DNA of 32,000 nucleotides from the NCBI GenBank assembly GCA_003144275.1, contig NJBF01000028.1, positions 31,234 through 63,233 of the forward strand, given 5' to 3'. Positions 13,363 to 26,227 of the stretch are shown piece by piece. Every line of letters starts with the position of its first letter. Positions within the stretch are counted from its first letter, which is position 1. Made by a program: the position numbers and the translations under genes. The notes under the pieces are model-generated. The model was not told the DNA's origin. It did not search any database and was given only the letters and a program-made list of their open reading frames with translations. The stretch is from Candidatus Heimdallarchaeota archaeon B3_Heim. GTDB lineage: Archaea; Asgardarchaeota; Heimdallarchaeia; Hodarchaeales; Hodarchaeaceae.

Positions 13363-13821
13363 GTGATAATTATGGACCTAAGTGCGAAATATCTCTATGG
13401 ATCGGGTTTTCTAATAGGAGTATGGTTTATTGTATCCATATTTTCGATTAATTCTTCGTTGTTATTTAGTGACATCACTTCATCATACTATTATTTATTT
13501 TTCACCGCAGGGCCTCTTCCCTTCATTCTGATTGGATTATCCATTTCCACCATGGGAATATATTTCTATGTTCTTTTATTCACAAAAGAACGAATTAGAG
13601 GATTAAACTTAGAGTTTGAAGCATCTCCTGATCTGAAAACATTCCGTGTAGTTAAAGATCATTCGCCCAATCGACTTACGAAGAAAGAAATCCCAGACAC
13701 CGCCTATTGTGGCGCATGTGGTCGTGAGGTTCACAAACCCTTTCGATGTGCAGCTTGTGGACAATTGTTGTGTGCTACACACATATTAGCAGGTGATCAT
13801 CGTTGTAAGGAGGGAATTTAA
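13363..13821 (+). CDS. Membrane protein with a C-terminal AN1-type zinc finger
   Basis: Hydrophobic N-terminal helices, then C-x2-C-x9-C-x2-C-x4-C-x2-H-x5-H-x-C at 13708-13806, an exact AN1 consensus. Confidence 0.85.
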   Translation: MIIMDLSAKYLYGSGFLIGVWFIVSIFSINSSLLFSDITSSYYYLFFTAGPLPFILIGLSISTMGIYFYVLLFTKERIRGLNLEFEASPDLKTFRVVKDHSPNRLTKKEIPDTAYCGACGREVHKPFRCAACGQLLCATHILAGDHRCKEGI

Positions 13822-17074: not shown

Positions 17075-17863
17075 TTAAGACGGTTTACGGGCATATGCAT
17101 AAAAAACAGGCATAAAAGACATCATTTCTGATGGTTTAGTTAGTGATATGCTTTGTTGGAGATCTTTCAACTTTGATCTTAATTTTCCTGGAAGAAACAA
17201 TTTTAAGGAGTTAATTTCGTCATTGTACATCTCTTTTACAATATCAGAGATTTGAACGACTGATTGAAGTCCGACTGTTGCCTGAAGTCCAGCTAGAGAA
17301 AACAATTGAGGTAATTTTCTACCTACATTTGGATCCGATGCAGAGAGAGAAGAACATAGCAGTTCCTTCCATTCTTCACCATATGGATGATCTATTCGTC
17401 CACCATAATCGGGTTCAGCCAAACAAGCGATCCATCCACCTGGTTTGGTTACGCGATAGAATTCTTTAATCAGCTGAACTGGATTGTCGAGCCATAAAAG
17501 AAGGTAATTACACAATGTTACATCAAAAACATCATTTTGGATTGGTAGTTTGTTCCCGTCGCCTTGAACGAGTGATGAATGATTATTTTTCCTACAATAT
17601 CCTAAAGCTATGGGATTAAAATCAATTCCAAGAATATCTGCCTTACTTAGAAGATCATTTAGCTCTTGGAGTAGTGCCCCTGTTCCTGAGCCAACTTCTA
17701 GGATTTTTTCAGCCTTGAGTAAATTTATTCTCCTATAAAGATAGTTTCTTGTAGATTTAGTCCAGCTGAGTTGTCTCCTGTACAAATTATCAAAAAAAGA
17801 CGCCTTTTCGGTAGAGAGAAGGATATCATTTGGTGTTAATCGTTCGCTTTGCTTTCGGGACAT
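17075..17863 (-). CDS. Class I SAM-dependent methyltransferase, last gene of the rSAM operon
   Basis: ILEVGSGTG, GDGNKLP...FDVTLC, KPGG.IACLAEPDYGG. ATG 17863 has GGAGG at 17871-17875, so the track start at 17908 is probably over-extended. Confidence 0.88.
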   Translation of the reverse strand: MSRKQSERLTPNDILLSTEKASFFDNLYRRQLSWTKSTRNYLYRRINLLKAEKILEVGSGTGALLQELNDLLSKADILGIDFNPIALGYCRKNNHSSLVQGDGNKLPIQNDVFDVTLCNYLLLWLDNPVQLIKEFYRVTKPGGWIACLAEPDYGGRIDHPYGEEWKELLCSSLSASDPNVGRKLPQLFSLAGLQATVGLQSVVQISDIVKEMYNDEINSLKLFLPGKLRSKLKDLQQSISLTKPSEMMSFMPVFYAYARKPS

Positions 17864-19158
17864 ATATATTCCTCCCGAGTATAACTCAAGGGACATCCAG
17901 CTCCACATAGGTTAAGTTGGCCACAGGTCTGACATTCGTCAGGAACATTGCTTTGGGTACGTATTTCAATAGAAAGGGGATGATTCCATATTTTTTCCCA
18001 AGGATCCTTTAGAATGTTACCTAGTCCTTCGTAATAGCTCTGACATGGGATAACAGTTCCATTAGGTTCGATGGCCATAGCTAGGTGAGAAGCTGAACAT
18101 CTTTTAACTCCAAGCCCCAAATTTACAGGGTCAATATCACAATAACGGGTTGGAGTATACCAAATGAACTCCATTCCATAATCATCTGCTGAATCTTGAA
18201 TTCGTTCCAGTACTGGTAATAGTTCTCTTTCGTTCAACGCAAGTTTAGAAACATTTTTCCCTTTACCCGCATAAATTATAGAATTACAGGCAAATTGTTC
18301 TACTTCTAGTTCATTTAATAGTCCTATGGTATCAATTATGGTTTCTACATTTAACTTAGTAAGGGTTGTATTGGTTAATGTATAAATCGGAGTTTCCACA
18401 GCATTTTTTATACCTGCAATGGTTTCATTCCAAGCTAAATCACTACCCACCATTTGATTATGAATGGATTCATTTGCACTTTCAAGAGTAATTTGAAAAT
18501 GATCAAGACCGGCTTCAACAAGGTTGTTAACATAATCTTGCTCTTTTAATTTCCGACCGTTGGTAATAAGTCCAGTTACGATACCAATAAGTTCAGCACG
18601 TTCTATTAGCTGTGATAAATCTTGTCTTAGTGTCGGTTCCCCACCTGTAAATGTCACATGAGGTATTGAAATCTCCCAAAGTCTTTCCAGTATATCTTTC
18701 CATGTATTGGTTTCTAGTTCGGACGCATTTGGAGATTCTGTTTGATTGTAACAGTGTGAACAAGTATTATTACAACGATAAGTTAATGCAAGATCCATTC
18801 TGAGAGGAGCTGTAAGATTTAATTCTGCAATATTAGATTCTTCTACATTTAATGAATGTATAGGGCATATATCTTCCGTAGTTGAAAGGGAGGTGATCAT
18901 GTCCTTTAGTGCATTAAGATCAGTTTTTGCTTGATGATCTGTCACGCGATAGAGAGATTTCAGCTCATTGAGGATTTTCTGCTCTGGAGTTCCATCTAGA
19001 ATTCTTTCAACGAAGAACGTTGCTGTTTGGTTTAGTTGTAAAATCCTAGATGCATTAATAACAAGGAGCCCATTTTCACCCTGTTTTCGTAAATGGAGAC
19101 GAATCTCACCGAATTGTCCTTCTCGCTGATGAATTAATGAAGACTTCTCTTGGTTCAT
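17836..19158 (-). CDS. Radical SAM/SPASM enzyme with an N-terminal PqqD-like RiPP recognition element
   Basis: CNNTCSHC at 18751-18774, FTGGEPTLR, ITNG; SPASM C-x12-G-x4-C...C-x2-C-x5-C-x3-C...C; N-terminal LVINASRILQLNQTATFFVERI...YRVTDHQAKTDL. ATG 19158 lies 2 nt after the upstream stop. Confidence 0.92.
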   Translation of the reverse strand: MNQEKSSLIHQREGQFGEIRLHLRKQGENGLLVINASRILQLNQTATFFVERILDGTPEQKILNELKSLYRVTDHQAKTDLNALKDMITSLSTTEDICPIHSLNVEESNIAELNLTAPLRMDLALTYRCNNTCSHCYNQTESPNASELETNTWKDILERLWEISIPHVTFTGGEPTLRQDLSQLIERAELIGIVTGLITNGRKLKEQDYVNNLVEAGLDHFQITLESANESIHNQMVGSDLAWNETIAGIKNAVETPIYTLTNTTLTKLNVETIIDTIGLLNELEVEQFACNSIIYAGKGKNVSKLALNERELLPVLERIQDSADDYGMEFIWYTPTRYCDIDPVNLGLGVKRCSASHLAMAIEPNGTVIPCQSYYEGLGNILKDPWEKIWNHPLSIEIRTQSNVPDECQTCGQLNLCGAGCPLSYTREEYICPESKAND

Positions 19159-19160
19159 CG

Positions 19161-19214
19161 TTATCGACCACCACCTGCGCACGCGCACGCACAGCCTGCG
19201 CAAGCGCAAGCACA
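19161..19214 (-). repeat. Tandem peptide repeat (CACACAG)x2 plus GGR-stop
   Basis: Codons tgt gct tgc gct tgc gca ggc / tgt gcg tgc gcg tgc gca ggt. Synonymous differences between the copies suggest the repeat is kept at protein level. Confidence 0.9.
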
Positions 19215-20690
19215 TCCTCCACCGCCTGATCTACCCCGTCCTCTCCCAATTGGTTGAACTGGAGGAGGATAGCTTCTTCTTGTTACTTTTTCTTGAAATG
19301 ATCGACCTCTTGGAACCCAATACCATGAATGATAGTGATAGGTATAATACCAAGGAATATATTCTAGATTCTGTGTTACCTCGATATCAAATTCTGGTTG
19401 ATAATTTTCATCTAATACAGCCCAATACCAGGCTTCAGTTGTTACCGTTTCAAGATCCTCACTTTGCTTTGAAGTTATTTGCAATACTGATTTGTCTATT
19501 AATGATTCATAGAATTGAACTGTTTTATCGTAAGAGTACCCTTTCATCCTACCTCGAGTTAATTTTACAAGAGCCGCGATAGAGCTAATCAAATCCTCCT
19601 CCTTAATACTAAACTCATCACGTAACGATTGCAAGAGAATTTTCTGATATTTCTTTAGATAACGAAGTGATGATCCTTCCATCAACTGAGGATCGGGATA
19701 TTCTTCCGATAATGGTTTAATTAGATCTTTTTCGATTAAGGAAAGAATGATCATAGAAGTTGTGATTTCAACGGGCTTTTCCAATATCACAGCAACCATT
19801 TCTCGCGGGAGATCTGTTCTTGGTCCCGCTGTTGGAACAGATACAAAGGGAGGTACATAATCGAGAAGACGCTTTTCCAGTTTTATTTTTCTGGAACGAC
19901 GAACTATGAAAGAACCAATTACTGCAATAATTATGAATACAACAACTCCACCAATTACTAACCCAAGAATAATTTCCTCTGCAGTAAGTGGAATTCCTTT
20001 AAACCATTTAACCCCCTCTTTTGGAAAAGATATACCATATTTATACTGTTGAGATGGGGAAGCGGTTGGTTCATGCCATTCGTGTACTTTACGGCCATTT
20101 TGAAGAAAAAAGGTGCGAGTGGGGGCTTTTTGATGATATTTTGTATAAGTTGTATCGTCAACAGTACCTGGAAATACCATTCGTGTTGTCAGATTAACAG
20201 TTCCAGTTGTATAAGCTGCACCCCACCATGTATTCCCAAACTGACTAGAAGCCATATCTGATTCTTCTGTATCCCCAAATACCATGTATGGTTGATTACC
20301 TTTGACATGGAGCGTCCCTCTATCAGAAATTGCATACGAATGAAGGTGAATTTCCACACCTACATCGATAACTTCGCTTTCCCGAATATCATAGAGTGGT
20401 TGTCCGTCAAGATCAGCTGATATACTACTCAGCTCATAATGCTTGTTTGGAAATCCTATATCAATTATATCAATATCCTGTCCAGATCCTTCTACTTTAA
20501 AAGTGATCCAGTATTCAATATCAGCCGAACCATCTAAGTTAATTGTGACCTCTACTAATTCATCTGGGACTGAAAAATAATAATTCTGAATATTACTTTC
20601 ACTAGATTCTCCTACAGTAATTATATTGAAGGGTATTAATAGGAGAATAAGGAGTAAATAGATCCGTGCGAGGGTATTGACTTTTCTCAT
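19161..20690 (-). CDS. DUF2207-like membrane protein with a Gly/Cys-Ala repeat C-terminal tail; candidate rSAM substrate
   Basis: N-terminal signal/TM, beta-rich ectodomain (VTINLDGSADIEYWITF), TM IILGLVIGGVVVFIIIAVIGSFIV followed by RRSRK, tail GGGGCACACAGCACACAGGGR*. Confidence 0.85.
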   Translation of the reverse strand: MRKVNTLARIYLLLILLLIPFNIITVGESSESNIQNYYFSVPDELVEVTINLDGSADIEYWITFKVEGSGQDIDIIDIGFPNKHYELSSISADLDGQPLYDIRESEVIDVGVEIHLHSYAISDRGTLHVKGNQPYMVFGDTEESDMASSQFGNTWWGAAYTTGTVNLTTRMVFPGTVDDTTYTKYHQKAPTRTFFLQNGRKVHEWHEPTASPSQQYKYGISFPKEGVKWFKGIPLTAEEIILGLVIGGVVVFIIIAVIGSFIVRRSRKIKLEKRLLDYVPPFVSVPTAGPRTDLPREMVAVILEKPVEITTSMIILSLIEKDLIKPLSEEYPDPQLMEGSSLRYLKKYQKILLQSLRDEFSIKEEDLISSIAALVKLTRGRMKGYSYDKTVQFYESLIDKSVLQITSKQSEDLETVTTEAWYWAVLDENYQPEFDIEVTQNLEYIPWYYTYHYHSWYWVPRGRSFQEKVTRRSYPPPVQPIGRGRGRSGGGGCACACAGCACACAGGGR

Positions 20691-20853: not shown

Positions 20854-22839
20854 TCAGCGTAGATCTTTGATTATTTCTTTGGTAGTAGTCGTGATTTGTT
20901 TGACGGAGCTTGTAATATTGTCTGAGTTTGTGGTTACATTATTTTTGAAATTATCAACCGAGGAATCAATACTACTCTGAACCTCTTCAAACTGAACATC
21001 GATTTTTCTCCTTTGATCATCTATATATTCACGTTGATCATGAGTTTTTCCTATGAAATTATCAGAAGTATTTTGCACTTCAGTGAAGAATTCAGCAAAT
21101 CGCTCTTGTAGCGAGGAGCTATATTTATCTAATGTATCCTGATGATCAGTAATTTTCTGTGATGTATCAGACCGAAATTGAATAAGGGAATTTTTATGCT
21201 CATCTTCCAAGCTTCCTACTAATACTGTTGTTGATTCCTCACTATCCTTCACCGCTTGATCGAGTTTATCATTGGTAATCGATACTATGTTTTGAATAGC
21301 AACCAGTCCATCTTGTTCTATAGTTCGAATTTGTTTTCTTAGATCATCGAATGCGGCCGTACTGGACCGTTTTATTTCGGAATTCTTGGTCTTGATGACT
21401 TCACGATTAGTTTCTACCACTGTATCAGCAGTAGGGGCTATTGATGAAACTGTTGTAAGTAATTCGCTCTGTTTTGACTGTAAAGTGCGTCTCACGTCTG
21501 TTAATGTTATTTCAATATTTTTTTCTTGACTTGTTTGAATTTCCTTGAACTGCTGACTTATTCCTTCTTGTAGGTCTCCAAGAGTAGTTTCATGTTTAAT
21601 CAAGACATCTTTCATTCCATCTTGGGATTTTTTAAAGAAGCCCATTAAGGATCCATTAAGGTCTGATGTTGTATCTTCTAACTTGGATTTGGTTTTTACA
21701 CCAAATTGTTCAAATGAGCTATTGATATTTGCGTACCAGTTTTCAAATGCTTTTGTCAATGTCTCAGAGGTTCTAAGACGCTTTTTACTAAAATCTGAAG
21801 AAACACGTGAGAGTGAAGAAAGTATTTGTTCCTCTAATTGACGAAAACCTGATTTGAGCGAATTTTCAAATTCCGTGGTGACTTTAGATTGCAGCTCTTC
21901 ATTTGTTTTTAGTGCAGATATAAAAGATTCGAAAACATTTTCCTTGATATTACTAATGGTCTGTTTTTGTTCCTCCTGGTATTTCTGCCACTCACTATAA
22001 TATCCATCAACTCCCTTCTCAATTTTTGTTTTTACTCCTTCCCTCTCTTCTTTAATAATTTCGATAACTCTTTGCTGAGACTCATTTAGTAATTCTTTTT
22101 GACGAATAAGATTATCATCCAGACGTGCTTTAAGACCATCAATTCCTGCGAGTAAATCTTCTTTAGCAATTTCTAGTCTGGAAACAGATTGTCTCAAAGT
22201 ATTCGCAAAAACATTGTCCAGTTCATTCTCTTTAGCATCACTAATTTGTGTCACACGATTATTAAATTCATCCAACGCTTGAAGAAAGGATGAGGCTACG
22301 CTATCTGACATCTCCCCAATATTTGCATTTTCTCTCTCGACGGTACTAACGAATTCCTTTTGTACGTCCGCTAACTTGTTGGAAATTTGATCTTGAAATT
22401 CCTTGATCTGTTTATACTGATGAGAATAGATATCATCCAATCCAGTATTCACTTTACCAGCCATTTCCCCATAGATTTGGGAAATGTCCTCTTCTTGCTT
22501 TTTTGTAAGTGAATTTAATTGTTTTTGCAGAGTAACTGTCCCTTTCTGCAATTGGTCAAGTAATTTTTCTAAACGAGAGCCGAAATCTCCTTTCTCTGAT
22601 TCAATATCGGTTTTGAGACCTTTCAAGTTATCTGTTAAATCACTAACAGTTGTTGCCAAATTGGCTATTTGCGATAAAATATCCGTTTTACCTTGGTCAA
22701 TATTTCGTGAAACAGAACTAGTTTGTTTCTTAATGTCTTGTTGAAAATCCTTCACTCGATTCTCATATTGACCACCCTCACTTTCAAGCTTCGCAAGATG
22801 ATCTTTTATTACATTTACTTTGTTATCTTGTTCAGACAT
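20854..22839 (-). CDS. All-helical protein with 11-residue (hendecad) amphipathic repeats
   Basis: 661 aa, no TM, no Cys, one Pro; hydrophobic residues recur every 11 aa; AGGTGA RBS at 22846-22851. Confidence 0.8.
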   Translation of the reverse strand: MSEQDNKVNVIKDHLAKLESEGGQYENRVKDFQQDIKKQTSSVSRNIDQGKTDILSQIANLATTVSDLTDNLKGLKTDIESEKGDFGSRLEKLLDQLQKGTVTLQKQLNSLTKKQEEDISQIYGEMAGKVNTGLDDIYSHQYKQIKEFQDQISNKLADVQKEFVSTVERENANIGEMSDSVASSFLQALDEFNNRVTQISDAKENELDNVFANTLRQSVSRLEIAKEDLLAGIDGLKARLDDNLIRQKELLNESQQRVIEIIKEEREGVKTKIEKGVDGYYSEWQKYQEEQKQTISNIKENVFESFISALKTNEELQSKVTTEFENSLKSGFRQLEEQILSSLSRVSSDFSKKRLRTSETLTKAFENWYANINSSFEQFGVKTKSKLEDTTSDLNGSLMGFFKKSQDGMKDVLIKHETTLGDLQEGISQQFKEIQTSQEKNIEITLTDVRRTLQSKQSELLTTVSSIAPTADTVVETNREVIKTKNSEIKRSSTAAFDDLRKQIRTIEQDGLVAIQNIVSITNDKLDQAVKDSEESTTVLVGSLEDEHKNSLIQFRSDTSQKITDHQDTLDKYSSSLQERFAEFFTEVQNTSDNFIGKTHDQREYIDDQRRKIDVQFEEVQSSIDSSVDNFKNNVTTNSDNITSSVKQITTTTKEIIKDLR

Positions 22840-22993: not shown

Positions 22994-25900
22994 ATGGACT
23001 ATAAAAAACTACAGACATTGGATCAATTTGAAGGTAAAATCCAACCCATTAATCTTGATGCTGATGCTAAAAAACTAGCTACTTTTTTTAACGAGATTGA
23101 TGATCTGTGGCCAGGGACTTTTACACAAGGCATTAAATTTGACGAAAAACGTACTAGAGATTTTATAGGAAAAAGAAAAGCTTTAGAAGCGTATGTAGCG
23201 TTCGACCCCTCAGACAGGATAGTTGGACTCTGTTCTGTGCATAAACGGATGGAGGAACCAAATGTTTCATATATTGGAATTCTAGGTGCACATCCAGATG
23301 TTTTATCAAAAAAATATGGAAAACATCTTCTTCTAACCGCTATAGAATTTAGTGTAGCCAATGGAGATTTACGTCAGGACTTACACACTTGGGCATCCAA
23401 TATGAAAGCGGTTCCTTTATATAAAAAGATTGGTCTCCAATGGGTTCCAGATACTTCAGTTTACATGCAGAATTATATCCCAGCAATCTTACAAGATAGT
23501 TTCTGTAAACCGTATTTTGATAAACATCCTGATTGGTATTTAAATCAAAAACGGGAGTTAACTCAAGCTCCTGATGATGATTCCTTCGGAAAAATGAAAG
23601 TATTCAACTATTATTTTGAAAATAAAGGTGATTATCTAAAAGTAATGATTGATAGGTATAGTCGATCAATCATGGGAATAACACGAAGTCTGGATGGAGA
23701 AGAGCTAAGTCTTGTTCTTCAGTATGATGAGCATGATGTTTTTACAGGTATTGAGAAACCATTTTTCCTTAAGGTTGAAAACAAAACGAATAAGGAATTC
23801 TCTTTGAATGTAGCGTTCGAACCCTCTCTAGAAATAACGCCCCAAAAATCCCAAATGAGTCGACACATCCCGATTGGTAATGTGAGCATTGAAAATTATT
23901 ATTCGGTCATCGATACAACCATAGATTCTAGTATTTATCGAAAAACACCAAGTATCAAAGCAAGGGTCACTTTAAACGGGAATGACCTAATTTTAGAATC
24001 AGGAGTGAGGGCAAAACAACCCGTTGATATTAATTCTTCAGATTTAACTAGGTGGATACCTTCAGGGAAACAAGAAGTTGGAATAAATATTAATAATCGG
24101 ACTACTGAATCCATTCAGGGTGAGCTGATTTTCTGGACGGATTCCGATGTTACAATACTTAATCCTGTAAATCAGATCAAAATTGATCCAGAGAGCTTTA
24201 TTGGTCTTCGAATAACTCTTAAAGTTCCTGAATATAAAGAAGATAACGCAGTTACTCTTTTTTGCCAGTTGAGGATGGAAAAGTCAAAAAGCAGAGTATT
24301 TGAAATTCCTGTATTCATTTCCGAGTATCCGTCTGTTGCTGCGCGTATCCAAAAGGATAAAAAACGAGTGATATTACAAAACCAAAATGTTCGATCTATC
24401 ATACATCTGGAAGGGGCACGTGCTACCTTAAAATCTACCGAAGATTCAGCAATGGCAATTAGTGCTAATATCCTAGATTTTGGCCCTCCTTTTGGATTTA
24501 GTGAATTTAATCAAGTGAAATTTGAACCAGAAATAATCTATGAAAACAACTCAATTAGAGTAAAACTCACTAAACAGAGTAGATCAAAAGAAAGTTTAAT
24601 TTTTTCCCGGAATTTTGAATTAAGGCCAGGTGATAATCATATTTCTGTATGGGAAGAGATTCAGAATTTAGGAACGATCAAAGATCAAGTTACGATTCTA
24701 ATGCAACCATCCTATAGTGATGGAATAAATATGCCAATGGGTAATAGATATCTTGTTTTTGAAGATGAATTGATAGTAGGACCTAATTATCTTTGGCCTA
24801 TAAGAGAAGGAGATCTTCCAGAAGGAACAGAACAGTATGAACCTTGGGTTTGTGTTGAAGCTGGTGATGTTACCTATTACCACATTTATCAAACAGAAAA
24901 TACTTTAGCCAACCCGAGTCGAGGAGCCTTAACAACATTAGAAAAATCTGTTTTCATCCCTGCATTATCTTTAGCCTCGTCCCCAAAAAGCTGGATAGGG
25001 TGCAGTTTAAGAGGGAAATGGAAAGATGTGAGGGAATTATCCTATTACCTAAGTAAAAAAACTATTCTTCCACATTCAGAGAAGTCCGTTCATCCGAAGT
25101 CTTATCTAAATATCGCAATCCCTAATGAAGAACTGCTACTGGGAAAAAAAGTCAATGACATACAGGTCAACGTCACTTCAACTAGGTTTATGCCTGTGAC
25201 AGGAAAGATTTCATTAGATCTCCCTGATGACTGGATATGTACTCCTAAGAGTCAAGAGATTTCTGAACTGAATTTAAAGAACCCCCAAAACTTCACTTTT
25301 CAGATTCAACTTCCTGAAATTACCGTATCACGAACTAGTAAATTAAAAGTCAAGATTACTTCTCCATCAGGAGAATTATCTGAAGAAATATCTGTACTCG
25401 TATTTAACAATTCATTAAAACCAAAAATAGAAAATCTACCCCCTATTGGAGAGAAAAATGTTACTAAAGTACAGAATGAGTCACTCGCGATTACAAGTTC
25501 CAAAGATTTTGTCGGTACTCTGACATCTATCAAATATAAAGATACGGAATATCTACATTCAAATTTTCCTACCATGGTGCCATCTCTATTCTTTAATCAG
25601 GACCCTGGAGGCCTACTGACAATCTTACTTGGAGGAAATGATGATTTAAGTGACCTCAAGTTCTTTAATGAAAAATTCCAACAATCAGAGGTTCAAAATG
25701 ATCCATGGTATGGTGTGGAATATACCGTTACAGTAGCTGAACGAAAGTCATTGAAAGGATTAGTCTTCAAAACCTCTTATTCATTATTGAGTGGAGATTC
25801 GCAACTCGTTAAAATCAGATTGCATATTTCCAATCCTACTTCTGCCACATTTCAATTTTTATCACTAAGCCTCCTATCACCTGCTATTAATGGATCTATT

Positions 25901-26227
25901 GAAGATATGATTGCTCAACTTGAGACCACAGATACATCGATTATTCATACTTTCACTAGAGATAATCCTCTACCAATCTTTGCACTAGGTACGGAACATC
26001 TTAAAAGATTAAACTACGTTAAGGAGGGAAAAAGTCTTTCCATAGTTTCTCCTCACTCAGACGCAAATTTATTCCCTCTTGACGCCGGTAAAATGATTCT
26101 TGGGGGAGGAGTTGCCAAATCCTGGTTTTTAGAACCTGGTGAATCAAGCGAATGTATCTTCTTCTTAATTCTAGGCTCTTCGGATAGATTGAAATTTGAA
26201 GAATTGTCTTCGATATTCCAGAAATAA
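22994..26227 (+). CDS. Large multidomain GNAT acetyltransferase (N-terminal GNAT plus beta-sandwich domains)
   Basis: YIGILGAHPDVLSKKYGKHLL and HTWASNMKAVPLYKKIGL (GNAT motifs A and B); later beta-rich Ig-like segments such as VTGKISLDLPDDW. Confidence 0.8.
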   Translation: MDYKKLQTLDQFEGKIQPINLDADAKKLATFFNEIDDLWPGTFTQGIKFDEKRTRDFIGKRKALEAYVAFDPSDRIVGLCSVHKRMEEPNVSYIGILGAHPDVLSKKYGKHLLLTAIEFSVANGDLRQDLHTWASNMKAVPLYKKIGLQWVPDTSVYMQNYIPAILQDSFCKPYFDKHPDWYLNQKRELTQAPDDDSFGKMKVFNYYFENKGDYLKVMIDRYSRSIMGITRSLDGEELSLVLQYDEHDVFTGIEKPFFLKVENKTNKEFSLNVAFEPSLEITPQKSQMSRHIPIGNVSIENYYSVIDTTIDSSIYRKTPSIKARVTLNGNDLILESGVRAKQPVDINSSDLTRWIPSGKQEVGININNRTTESIQGELIFWTDSDVTILNPVNQIKIDPESFIGLRITLKVPEYKEDNAVTLFCQLRMEKSKSRVFEIPVFISEYPSVAARIQKDKKRVILQNQNVRSIIHLEGARATLKSTEDSAMAISANILDFGPPFGFSEFNQVKFEPEIIYENNSIRVKLTKQSRSKESLIFSRNFELRPGDNHISVWEEIQNLGTIKDQVTILMQPSYSDGINMPMGNRYLVFEDELIVGPNYLWPIREGDLPEGTEQYEPWVCVEAGDVTYYHIYQTENTLANPSRGALTTLEKSVFIPALSLASSPKSWIGCSLRGKWKDVRELSYYLSKKTILPHSEKSVHPKSYLNIAIPNEELLLGKKVNDIQVNVTSTRFMPVTGKISLDLPDDWICTPKSQEISELNLKNPQNFTFQIQLPEITVSRTSKLKVKITSPSGELSEEISVLVFNNSLKPKIENLPPIGEKNVTKVQNESLAITSSKDFVGTLTSIKYKDTEYLHSNFPTMVPSLFFNQDPGGLLTILLGGNDDLSDLKFFNEKFQQSEVQNDPWYGVEYTVTVAERKSLKGLVFKTSYSLLSGDSQLVKIRLHISNPTSATFQFLSLSLLSPAINGSIEDMIAQLETTDTSIIHTFTRDNPLPIFALGTEHLKRLNYVKEGKSLSIVSPHSDANLFPLDAGKMILGGGVAKSWFLEPGESSECIFFLILGSSDRLKFEELSSIFQK

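Follow-up and report, generated by a model that had tools for sequence, protein, structure and literature searches.

Radical S-adenosylmethionine (SAM) enzymes with a SPASM region, which mature peptides that ribosomes make and that are modified after translation (RiPPs), are represented by the solved structures of SuiB (5v1q), SkfB (6efn), CteB (5why) and PqqE (6c8v). They combine a PqqD-like RiPP recognition element (RRE), a CxxxCxxC radical SAM core and the SPASM auxiliary-cluster cysteines, and their substrates are adjacently encoded short precursors of tens of residues. Here we describe a three-gene unit of Candidatus Heimdallarchaeota archaeon B3_Heim, which encodes a radical SAM (rSAM) enzyme of the same composition, a methyltransferase and a membrane protein ending in a Cys-Ala repeat. 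Unlike in the systems named above, the candidate substrate is the end of this 509-residue membrane protein. The unit lies in a stretch of 32,000 nucleotides (contig NJBF01000028.1, positions 31,234 to 63,233), hereafter the window, of an Asgard metagenome-assembled genome that is about 94% complete and whose nearest relatives carry the names Hodarchaeales and Promethearchaeota (Asgard archaea). From sequence comparison and structure models, we suggest that the three genes probably constitute a protein-maturation module, in which the rSAM enzyme modifies the tail of the membrane protein.

The closest published analogy that we found involves another enzyme class. In a 2025 survey, it was proposed that MNIO (DUF692) enzymes modify TIGR04222 membrane proteins with Ser/Gly/Cys-rich C-terminal tails, which would be bona fide proteins; these tails vary and are predicted to lie in the periplasm, and the enzyme is missing from a third of those genomes (PMC12452194). 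Common to that system and the present one are a membrane protein, an unstructured, Cys-bearing, low-complexity tail and a linked enzyme of RiPP type. However, the present system has a radical SAM/SPASM enzyme with an RRE, an invariant tail that is predicted to be cytoplasmic, and a near one-to-one coupling of the two genes. The window protein has no match to TIGR04222, and no MNIO gene is found in the cassette. By this analogy, the tail/rSAM system looks like a parallel solution to TIGR04222/MNIO with a different enzyme class.

Radical SAM maturation of a whole protein, as proposed here, is also the case for QhpD and its substrate QhpC, the gamma subunit of quinohemoprotein amine dehydrogenase. 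QhpC is a small soluble subunit with Cys-to-Asp/Glu links. QhpD forms intra-peptidyl crosslinks in a protein substrate that stays in a functional protein (PMC7876137). Unlike QhpC, the substrate candidate here is membrane-bound and carries a Cys-Ala repeat, and no Qhp genes are present among the neighbours. The enzyme anSME (4k37-4k39), which modifies Cys or Ser in a full-length protein, has the same radical SAM/SPASM fold and matches our rSAM model structurally with a TM score of about 0.52-0.54. It has no RRE and recognises the C/S-x-P/A-x-R sulfatase motif. In contrast, the window enzyme has an RRE, its partner tail contains no C/S-x-P/A-x-R motif, and no sulfatase is found among the neighbours. 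The SCIFF and ACGX-repeat (TIGR04340) systems resemble the present one in their short Cys-rich or repeat core (the repeats may be alike), their one-to-one pairing with a dedicated rSAM/SPASM enzyme and their wide conservation, but their precursors are stand-alone peptides, and the match of the window enzyme to TIGR04340 is weak (E 3.5e-17, 62.7 bits versus a cutoff of 400). Literature searches found no paper describing this tail or the tail/rSAM pairing, which agrees with the original prediction that no characterised system of this kind was known.

All three genes are on the minus strand, head to tail, in the order tail gene, rSAM gene, methyltransferase gene. The tail gene TAA and the rSAM ATG are separated by 2 nt (CGA TAA cg ATG), and the methyltransferase ATG lies 28 nt inside the rSAM gene. 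The methyltransferase orthologues overlap likewise, their alignment beginning at residue 1. The co-orientation and translational coupling that were predicted from this gap and this overlap are thus found as described. A search of sequencing runs for expression data matched no RNA dataset and gave only partial DNA matches, from cold-seep and marine-sediment metagenomes. A longer rSAM open reading frame (ORF) from 19215 was rejected, as its upstream extension is merely the +1 frame of the Cys-Ala repeat; the rSAM orthologues align from residue 4-8 of the short (440-aa) form.

The tail is the most conserved part of the membrane protein. Here it reads CACACAGCACACAGGGR, and the C-terminus as a whole has the form GGGG-CACACAG-CACACAG-GGR-stop, which is the six-Cys low-complexity end that had been noted for the upstream gene. 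The end (CA)n[G](CA)3-4GGGR is present in 234 of the 237 distinct family proteins, and the remaining three are truncated. The final ten residues, CACACAGGGR, are fixed, while the first repeat block varies between 2 and 5 units and the inner Gly is occasionally missing. Holders of the tail range from Asgard archaea to Anaerolineae and more than 10 further phyla; Anaerolineae are the main carriers, so that the earlier suggestion of such tails in Chloroflexi proved right. The 17-residue tail is identical between proteins whose bodies share 28-35% identity with the window protein. The identical 17-mer is encoded by 71 distinct DNA strings, in which each position shows the full range of synonymous codons, with all six for Arg and all three stops. 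This indicates that selection acts on the peptide and not on the DNA, and that Ala, Gly and Arg are held as strictly as Cys. A DNA- or RNA-level cause of the repeat was rejected, since every synonymous codon occurs. The tail is disordered in the AlphaFold model, with a predicted local distance difference test score (pLDDT) below 50, and its pattern is single copy in the source genome and in each of five other genomes checked.

The linkage of the tail to the rSAM gene was followed in 80 loci, which were fetched with the membrane protein alone as query; the choice of loci is thus blind to the neighbours. The tail gene was located in 79 of them. An rSAM orthologue is encoded in the locus on the same strand in 70/79 loci, mostly starting less than 100 nt from the tail gene stop. 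The linked orthologues share 39-52% identity with the window enzyme, or 72-74% in close relatives, and come from more than 10 phyla, among them Asgard archaea, Anaerolineae, Acidobacteriota, Zixibacteria, Aminicenantes, Cloacimonadota, Fermentibacteria and Methanomassiliicoccaceae. Several of the nine loci without an adjacent rSAM gene stop at a contig edge. When the tail gene is unlinked, an rSAM orthologue (43-51% identity) is found elsewhere in five of five genomes, once beside a second tail gene. One subclade (L027:9905-13686, L029, L051 and L062) has two tandem tail genes with the tail (CA)3G(CA)4GGGR, and the rSAM gene lies about 2-5 kb upstream.

The presence and absence of the two genes also coincide. 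Of 41 Asgard relatives, 17 have both the tail protein and the rSAM orthologue (E <1e-130), whereas 24 have neither, and this co-occurrence is patchy within one genus. A second sample consisted of 151 Anaerolineae genomes drawn evenly from the class, with an orthologue threshold of E <1e-100. The tail pattern is present in 22 of the 24 rSAM-positive genomes versus none of the 127 others, and the two genes are within 4 kb of each other in 17 of these 22. The 127 tail-less genomes include 25 that have only an rSAM paralogue with 32-36% identity. In one of the mismatching genomes (G104) the rSAM gene stands at a contig start. Although relatives are not independent samples, coupling this close to perfect, seen in two domains of life, would be difficult to account for if the two genes had no direct functional link.

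RRE-dependent rSAM/SPASM maturases normally have a short precursor peptide, and none was identified here. The window junctions of the unit leave no room for a stand-alone precursor. In the databases, 35 matches to the last 70 residues of the membrane protein, in proteins of 38-123 aa, all proved to belong to the same family, as fragments at contig ends or as chimeric gene calls, and were rejected as short precursors. Clustering of 20-89-aa ORFs outside the core genes yielded a largest cluster of 14 loci, all from Anaerolineaceae and not Cys-rich; a conserved small ORF was thus rejected as well. Hence, the absence of a short precursor ORF, which had been claimed for the window, also holds across lineages. 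The expectation that tail-bearing homologues keep the rSAM neighbour is borne out by the linked loci and by the matching presence and absence in the Asgard and Anaerolineae lineages. Conservation, linkage and co-occurrence together make it likely that the tail is the substrate of the rSAM enzyme, as the original prediction had it.

The enzyme itself shows the features expected of a peptide maturase. Pfam finds PqqD (PF05402) at residues 34-84 (E 1.6e-5, 25.6 bits versus a cutoff of 23.4), Radical_SAM (PF04055) at residues 125-280 (E 4.9e-24) and SPASM (PF13186) at residues 354-412 (E 9.7e-10). The cysteines C129, C133 and C136 and the seven cysteines of the SPASM region are invariant across 50 rSAM orthologues. 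Most orthologues (80%) have an eighth Cys at position 362, where the window enzyme has Ala. The AlphaFold model has a pLDDT of 84 and a predicted template modelling score of 0.85, and its N-terminal part consists of strands 8-13, 19-26, 29-34 and 38-42 followed by helices 44-54, 59-69 and 74-93. Four strands followed by three helices is the layout of an RRE, and together with the PqqD match above threshold it identifies the N-terminal domain as such. Foldseek with the model returns SuiB first, over 454 columns including the RRE, followed by SkfB, PqqE and CteB; when sequences are compared, SkfB, PqqE and SuiB come nearest among the solved chains. Thus the CxxxCxxC motif, the seven SPASM cysteines and the PqqD-like N-terminal domain, all read earlier from the letters, are found, and the assignment of that domain as an RRE is upheld by the Pfam match, by the strands and three helices and by the best fold likeness to the RRE-bearing maturases SuiB, SkfB and CteB. 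By its architecture, as it appears in sequence and model, the enzyme is of the peptide-modifying kind and belongs with the RRE-dependent rSAM/SPASM maturases.

Within these maturases the enzyme reaches no NCBIfam family cutoff, all matches being far below. The best is PqqE (TIGR02109), with 130.8 bits versus a cutoff of 381, and no pqq genes are found among the neighbours. The profiles of sactipeptide and ranthipeptide synthases are likewise not reached: SkfB gives 92 bits versus 300, StsB 79.7 versus 625 and WgkB 97.8 versus 650. The core of the enzyme also matches heme/PQQ/MoaA-type and lipid-modifying enzymes, such as NirJ2, AhbD and GDGT-MAS (7tol, E 2e-11). One could therefore imagine that the substrate of the enzyme is not a peptide but, for instance, a membrane lipid or the precursor of a cofactor, and that the enzyme shares an envelope function with the membrane protein while the tail is irrelevant. 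Yet these matches extend no further than the common core and fall well short of the family cutoffs, whereas a peptide substrate is indicated by the RRE and by the structural likeness to SuiB, SkfB and CteB over the full length, and no part of the partner protein is more conserved than the tail. We regard a non-peptide substrate as very improbable.

In a FastTree phylogeny of the rSAM enzymes (59 rows), those of Hodarchaeales and Heimdallarchaeum group together with a support of 92. This group falls within a mixed clade that also holds Zixibacteria, Methanomassiliicoccaceae, Acidobacteriota and part of the Anaerolineae, and the main Anaerolineaceae clade is separate. The tree hints at a transfer between the domains, in either direction.

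The membrane protein is modelled with a pLDDT of 85. The model comprises an N-terminal signal or anchor helix, a confident beta-sandwich (residues 39-223), a long transmembrane (TM) helix, a helical domain and a disordered end from residue 483. The beta-sandwich resembles the N-terminal domain of M1 aminopeptidases and ribophorin (Foldseek, E about 1e-8 to 1e-7), and AlphaFold Database (AFDB) cluster fold matches named DUF2207 reach E values down to 1.7e-16. At the level of fold, the plan of the protein, with a signal peptide, beta-sandwich ectodomain, TM helix, cytoplasmic domain and Gly-rich tail, looks like that of DUF2207 proteins; there is no Pfam DUF2207 match, and only the present family has the invariant Cys-Ala tail together with the rSAM partner. 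The window protein has no Pfam and no NCBIfam match at all. Among 86 relatives, DUF2207_C is matched weakly in one (E 0.0045), and TIGR04222 is matched weakly in the cytoplasmic domain of nine (best E 4.8e-8, below the 43-bit cutoff). The family has more than 500 homologues and 510 clusters at 50% identity. In bacterial homologues the N-terminal segment closes in AxA-Q-like sites.

Across 86 family members, Lys and Arg number 3.1 on average in the 15 residues after the TM helix versus 1.1 before it. According to the positive-inside rule, this basic cluster places the C-terminal half, the tail included, in the cytoplasm. The tail is hence predicted, from sequence and model, to be in the compartment where Fe-S/SAM enzymes work. 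The cytoplasmic domain opens with a segment (window 19700-19823, aa about 290-330) whose consensus in the family is GIKRGLTAVEAAILLExPLNKVLTMILFGLxKKG. This segment has a winged-helix-like look, and some AFDB fold matches are named HTH iclR-type or DUF7343.

Upstream of the tail, residues F465, T470, P475 and P477 vary little or not at all across 86 sequences and form the motif F-x4-T-x4-P-x-P. A variable Ser/Gly/Arg linker of 10-23 aa separates it from the first Cys. We infer that the motif is a candidate recognition site of the RRE, and the order of motif, linker and core is, by analogy, a RiPP-precursor-like organisation. Prediction of a complex between the rSAM enzyme (50-row alignment, three 4Fe-4S clusters, SAM) and residues 445-509 of the membrane protein gave a score of 0.02 and carries no weight either way. 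The same order of motif, linker and core, together with the GG/GGGG before the core, also fits a variant of our proposal, in which the membrane protein is a giant precursor: its modified core would be cut at the Gly-rich junction and released as a small RiPP, the 490-residue body being leader or scaffold. The junction resembles the double-glycine junctions that mark class II leader cleavage. However, no protease or exporter is conserved in the cassette, the tail is predicted to be cytoplasmic with no export route encoded, and many residues are invariant in the ectodomain and in the cytoplasmic domain themselves, which points to a function beyond that of a leader. Release of the core is, in our judgement, quite improbable.

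The content of the unit varies beyond its two main genes. Of the 79 loci, 51 have a methyltransferase orthologue, among them every Hodarchaeales locus; tail protein and rSAM enzyme thus make up the core of the system. The three-gene operon of the original prediction stands for the window, where the three genes are coupled; the unit is larger in bacteria, and the methyltransferase is accessory. Among solved structures, the methyltransferase weakly matches LahSB and BpumL, a generic class I similarity. The fixed C-terminal Arg and the weak match to the C-terminal carboxyl methyltransferase LahSB are a lead only as to its target. Directly upstream of the tail gene, 68 loci of bacteria and Methanomassiliicoccaceae encode a zinc-ribbon protein of ~125 aa with two TM helices, in which the C-terminal KCxxCG...CPYC is followed by an invariant EEPKW. 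It was not found in the source genome with a 13-sequence profile, which gave a marginal match (E 0.005) to a zinc ribbon elsewhere. A second rSAM-like gene stands between the enzyme and the methyltransferase in 29 Anaerolineae loci (e.g. L077:13029-14189 (+)). Its product keeps the PqqD/RRE domain, whereas CxxxCxxC is present in 0/29 and the SPASM cysteines are lost. Retention of the peptide-binding domain in a dead paralogue fits a non-catalytic, substrate-binding partner, and this protein is possibly such a catalytically dead partner that holds the substrate.

We propose the following course of maturation. First, the membrane protein would insert with its beta-sandwich outside, leaving the helical domain and the disordered tail in the cytoplasm. 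The rSAM enzyme would then bind the C-terminal end via its N-terminal RRE, threading the Cys-Ala core into the active site. For CteB, a published study names six positions of residues in proximity to the catalytic site (PMC10288494). With the cleavage of SAM a hydrogen atom would be abstracted from the core, and the core would be rewired. The most likely product would be thioether crosslinks from Cys sulfur to carbon of neighbouring Ala or Gly, formed with the assistance of the SPASM clusters. In the last step the methyltransferase would methylate the product, candidate sites being a remaining thiol or the C-terminal carboxylate.

Thioethers are favoured here for three reasons. The closest characterised relatives include the thioether synthases SkfB and CteB, both of which form Cys thioethers. 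The invariance of Ala and Gly suggests that these residues react or must fit a tight active site. Moreover, small residues are the usual acceptors in sactionines. Provided that the tail is the substrate, we consider the formation of thioethers an even call. The full picture, in which an integral membrane protein of full length would carry several sactionine- or ranthionine-type thioethers and a methyl group in its invariant tail, is more tentative and lies somewhat below that. Epimerisation, Cys oxidation and C-C links may also be the outcome.

Several observations weigh against the modification of the tail by this enzyme. The F-x4-T-x4-P-x-P segment is modelled as a helix with a pLDDT of about 80-85 and thus may be part of a folded domain rather than a free leader. 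The enzyme is in no named NCBIfam maturase family, so that its reaction type is not readable from homology. About a third of the loci have no methyltransferase. The linkage is not absolute: in G102 (L100, G102:C65:9000-12600), the other mismatching Anaerolineae genome, the gene before the rSAM gene encodes an unrelated protein of 246 aa, and the incomplete assembly yielded no tail protein, which makes it either a genuine exception or an assembly gap. Finally, Cys-X-Cys repeats are typical of metallothionein-like sites. The six thiolates of the tail (CxCxCxxCxCxC) could accordingly constitute a metal or Fe-S site that works unmodified, the rSAM enzyme acting elsewhere or exchanging a cluster or electrons with the tail. 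The predicted cytoplasmic location and flexibility of the tail would suit such a site, as would the anaerobic habitats from which all named carriers come, where Fe-S chemistry is common. But Ala, Gly and the terminal Arg are as invariant as Cys over the 71 DNA versions and are not needed for metal ligation; in a plain CxC metal site the x positions would tolerate change. The partner enzyme and its dead paralogue both have an RRE, which is a peptide-binding domain. The coupling of the two genes is almost one-to-one, and no other candidate substrate gene is conserved. We thus consider an unmodified metal site unlikely and retain the modification of the tail by the rSAM enzyme as our proposal.

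Features of the unit and of related loci. Positions are those of the window; those with an L number are positions in other loci.
Feature	Position	Strand	Description	Basis
Membrane protein gene	19161..20690	-	509 aa, single-pass, DUF2207-like architecture, proposed substrate	ORF and translation
N-terminal signal peptide or anchor helix, aa 1-27	20610..20690	-		Helix residues 2-25 in AlphaFold model
Extracytoplasmic beta-sandwich domain, aa about 36-225	20016..20585	-		AlphaFold pLDDT 96-99
TM helix, aa 237-262	19905..19982	-	Long helix 237-275 in model, then RRSRKIKLEKR	Translation, AlphaFold
Cytoplasmic helical domain, aa about 290-455	19326..19823	-		Helices 296-424 in AlphaFold model
Leader-like motif F-x4-T-x4-P-x-P, aa 463-477	19260..19304	-	SFQEKVTRRSYPPP; candidate RRE recognition sequence	Conservation in 86 sequences
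Tail, aa 493-509	19164..19214	-	CACACAGCACACAGGGR; proposed modified core	Translation and family conservation
RRE-radical SAM-SPASM enzyme gene	17836..19158	-	440 aa	Pfam, NCBIfam, model
RRE (PqqD-like) domain, rSAM aa 8-93	18880..19137	-		Pfam PqqD and AlphaFold model
CxxxCxxC radical SAM cluster motif	18751..18774	-	C129/C133/C136	Invariant in 50 orthologues
SPASM region	17893..18141	-	Seven invariant Cys (340, 354, 372, 409, 412, 418, 422)	Pfam and 50 orthologues
Class I SAM methyltransferase gene	17075..17863	-	262 aa, accessory tailoring enzyme	Methyltransf_11, E 4e-20
Zinc-ribbon protein, examples	L077:9499-9891 (+); L018:9506-9916; L057:1240-1608			

Downstream, the unit is flanked by an EamA transporter gene on the opposite strand, 23 nt away; upstream, a 163-nt spacer separates it from the gene of a 661-aa coiled-coil protein. 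These two, as well as the helicase, the GNAT protein and the M50 peptidase of the window, were rejected as members of the unit, as they are unrelated to it and not conserved beside the cassette elsewhere. The 661-aa protein (20854-22839, minus strand) consists almost wholly of amphipathic or coiled-coil repeats like those of apolipoproteins (Pfam Apolipoprotein at E 1.6e-17, which is under the cutoff). A 1077-aa protein (22994-26227, plus strand) has an N-terminal GNAT acetyltransferase as its sole recognised domain. A 152-aa protein (13363-13821, plus strand) ends in an AN1-type zinc finger (27.7 bits versus a cutoff of 27.9), which is more familiar as a eukaryotic domain.

In RiPP enzymology, precursors are taken to be short and disposable. 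Here the logic of RRE, leader-like motif, linker and core appears to sit on the cytoplasmic end of a 500-residue membrane protein, whose conservation reaches from Asgard archaea to Chloroflexota and a dozen further phyla of anaerobes. Should the tail be modified, radical SAM peptide chemistry would extend to membrane proteins, and a large orphan rSAM clade, which genome-mining tools would list as precursor-less, would gain a function. Two cultured carriers of the system exist, Bellilinea caldifistulae GOMI-1 and Leptolinea sp. HRD-7. If the full picture of several thioethers and a methyl group is true, a membrane protein would for the first time be the target of a radical modification of RiPP type, kept between Asgard archaea and many bacterial phyla, and the outcome would be a cytoplasmic appendage that is knotted by covalent bonds and possibly metal- or redox-active. 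Modification of the tail would thus raise the question of the role that a crosslinked poly-Cys/Ala appendage plays at the inner face of the membrane.

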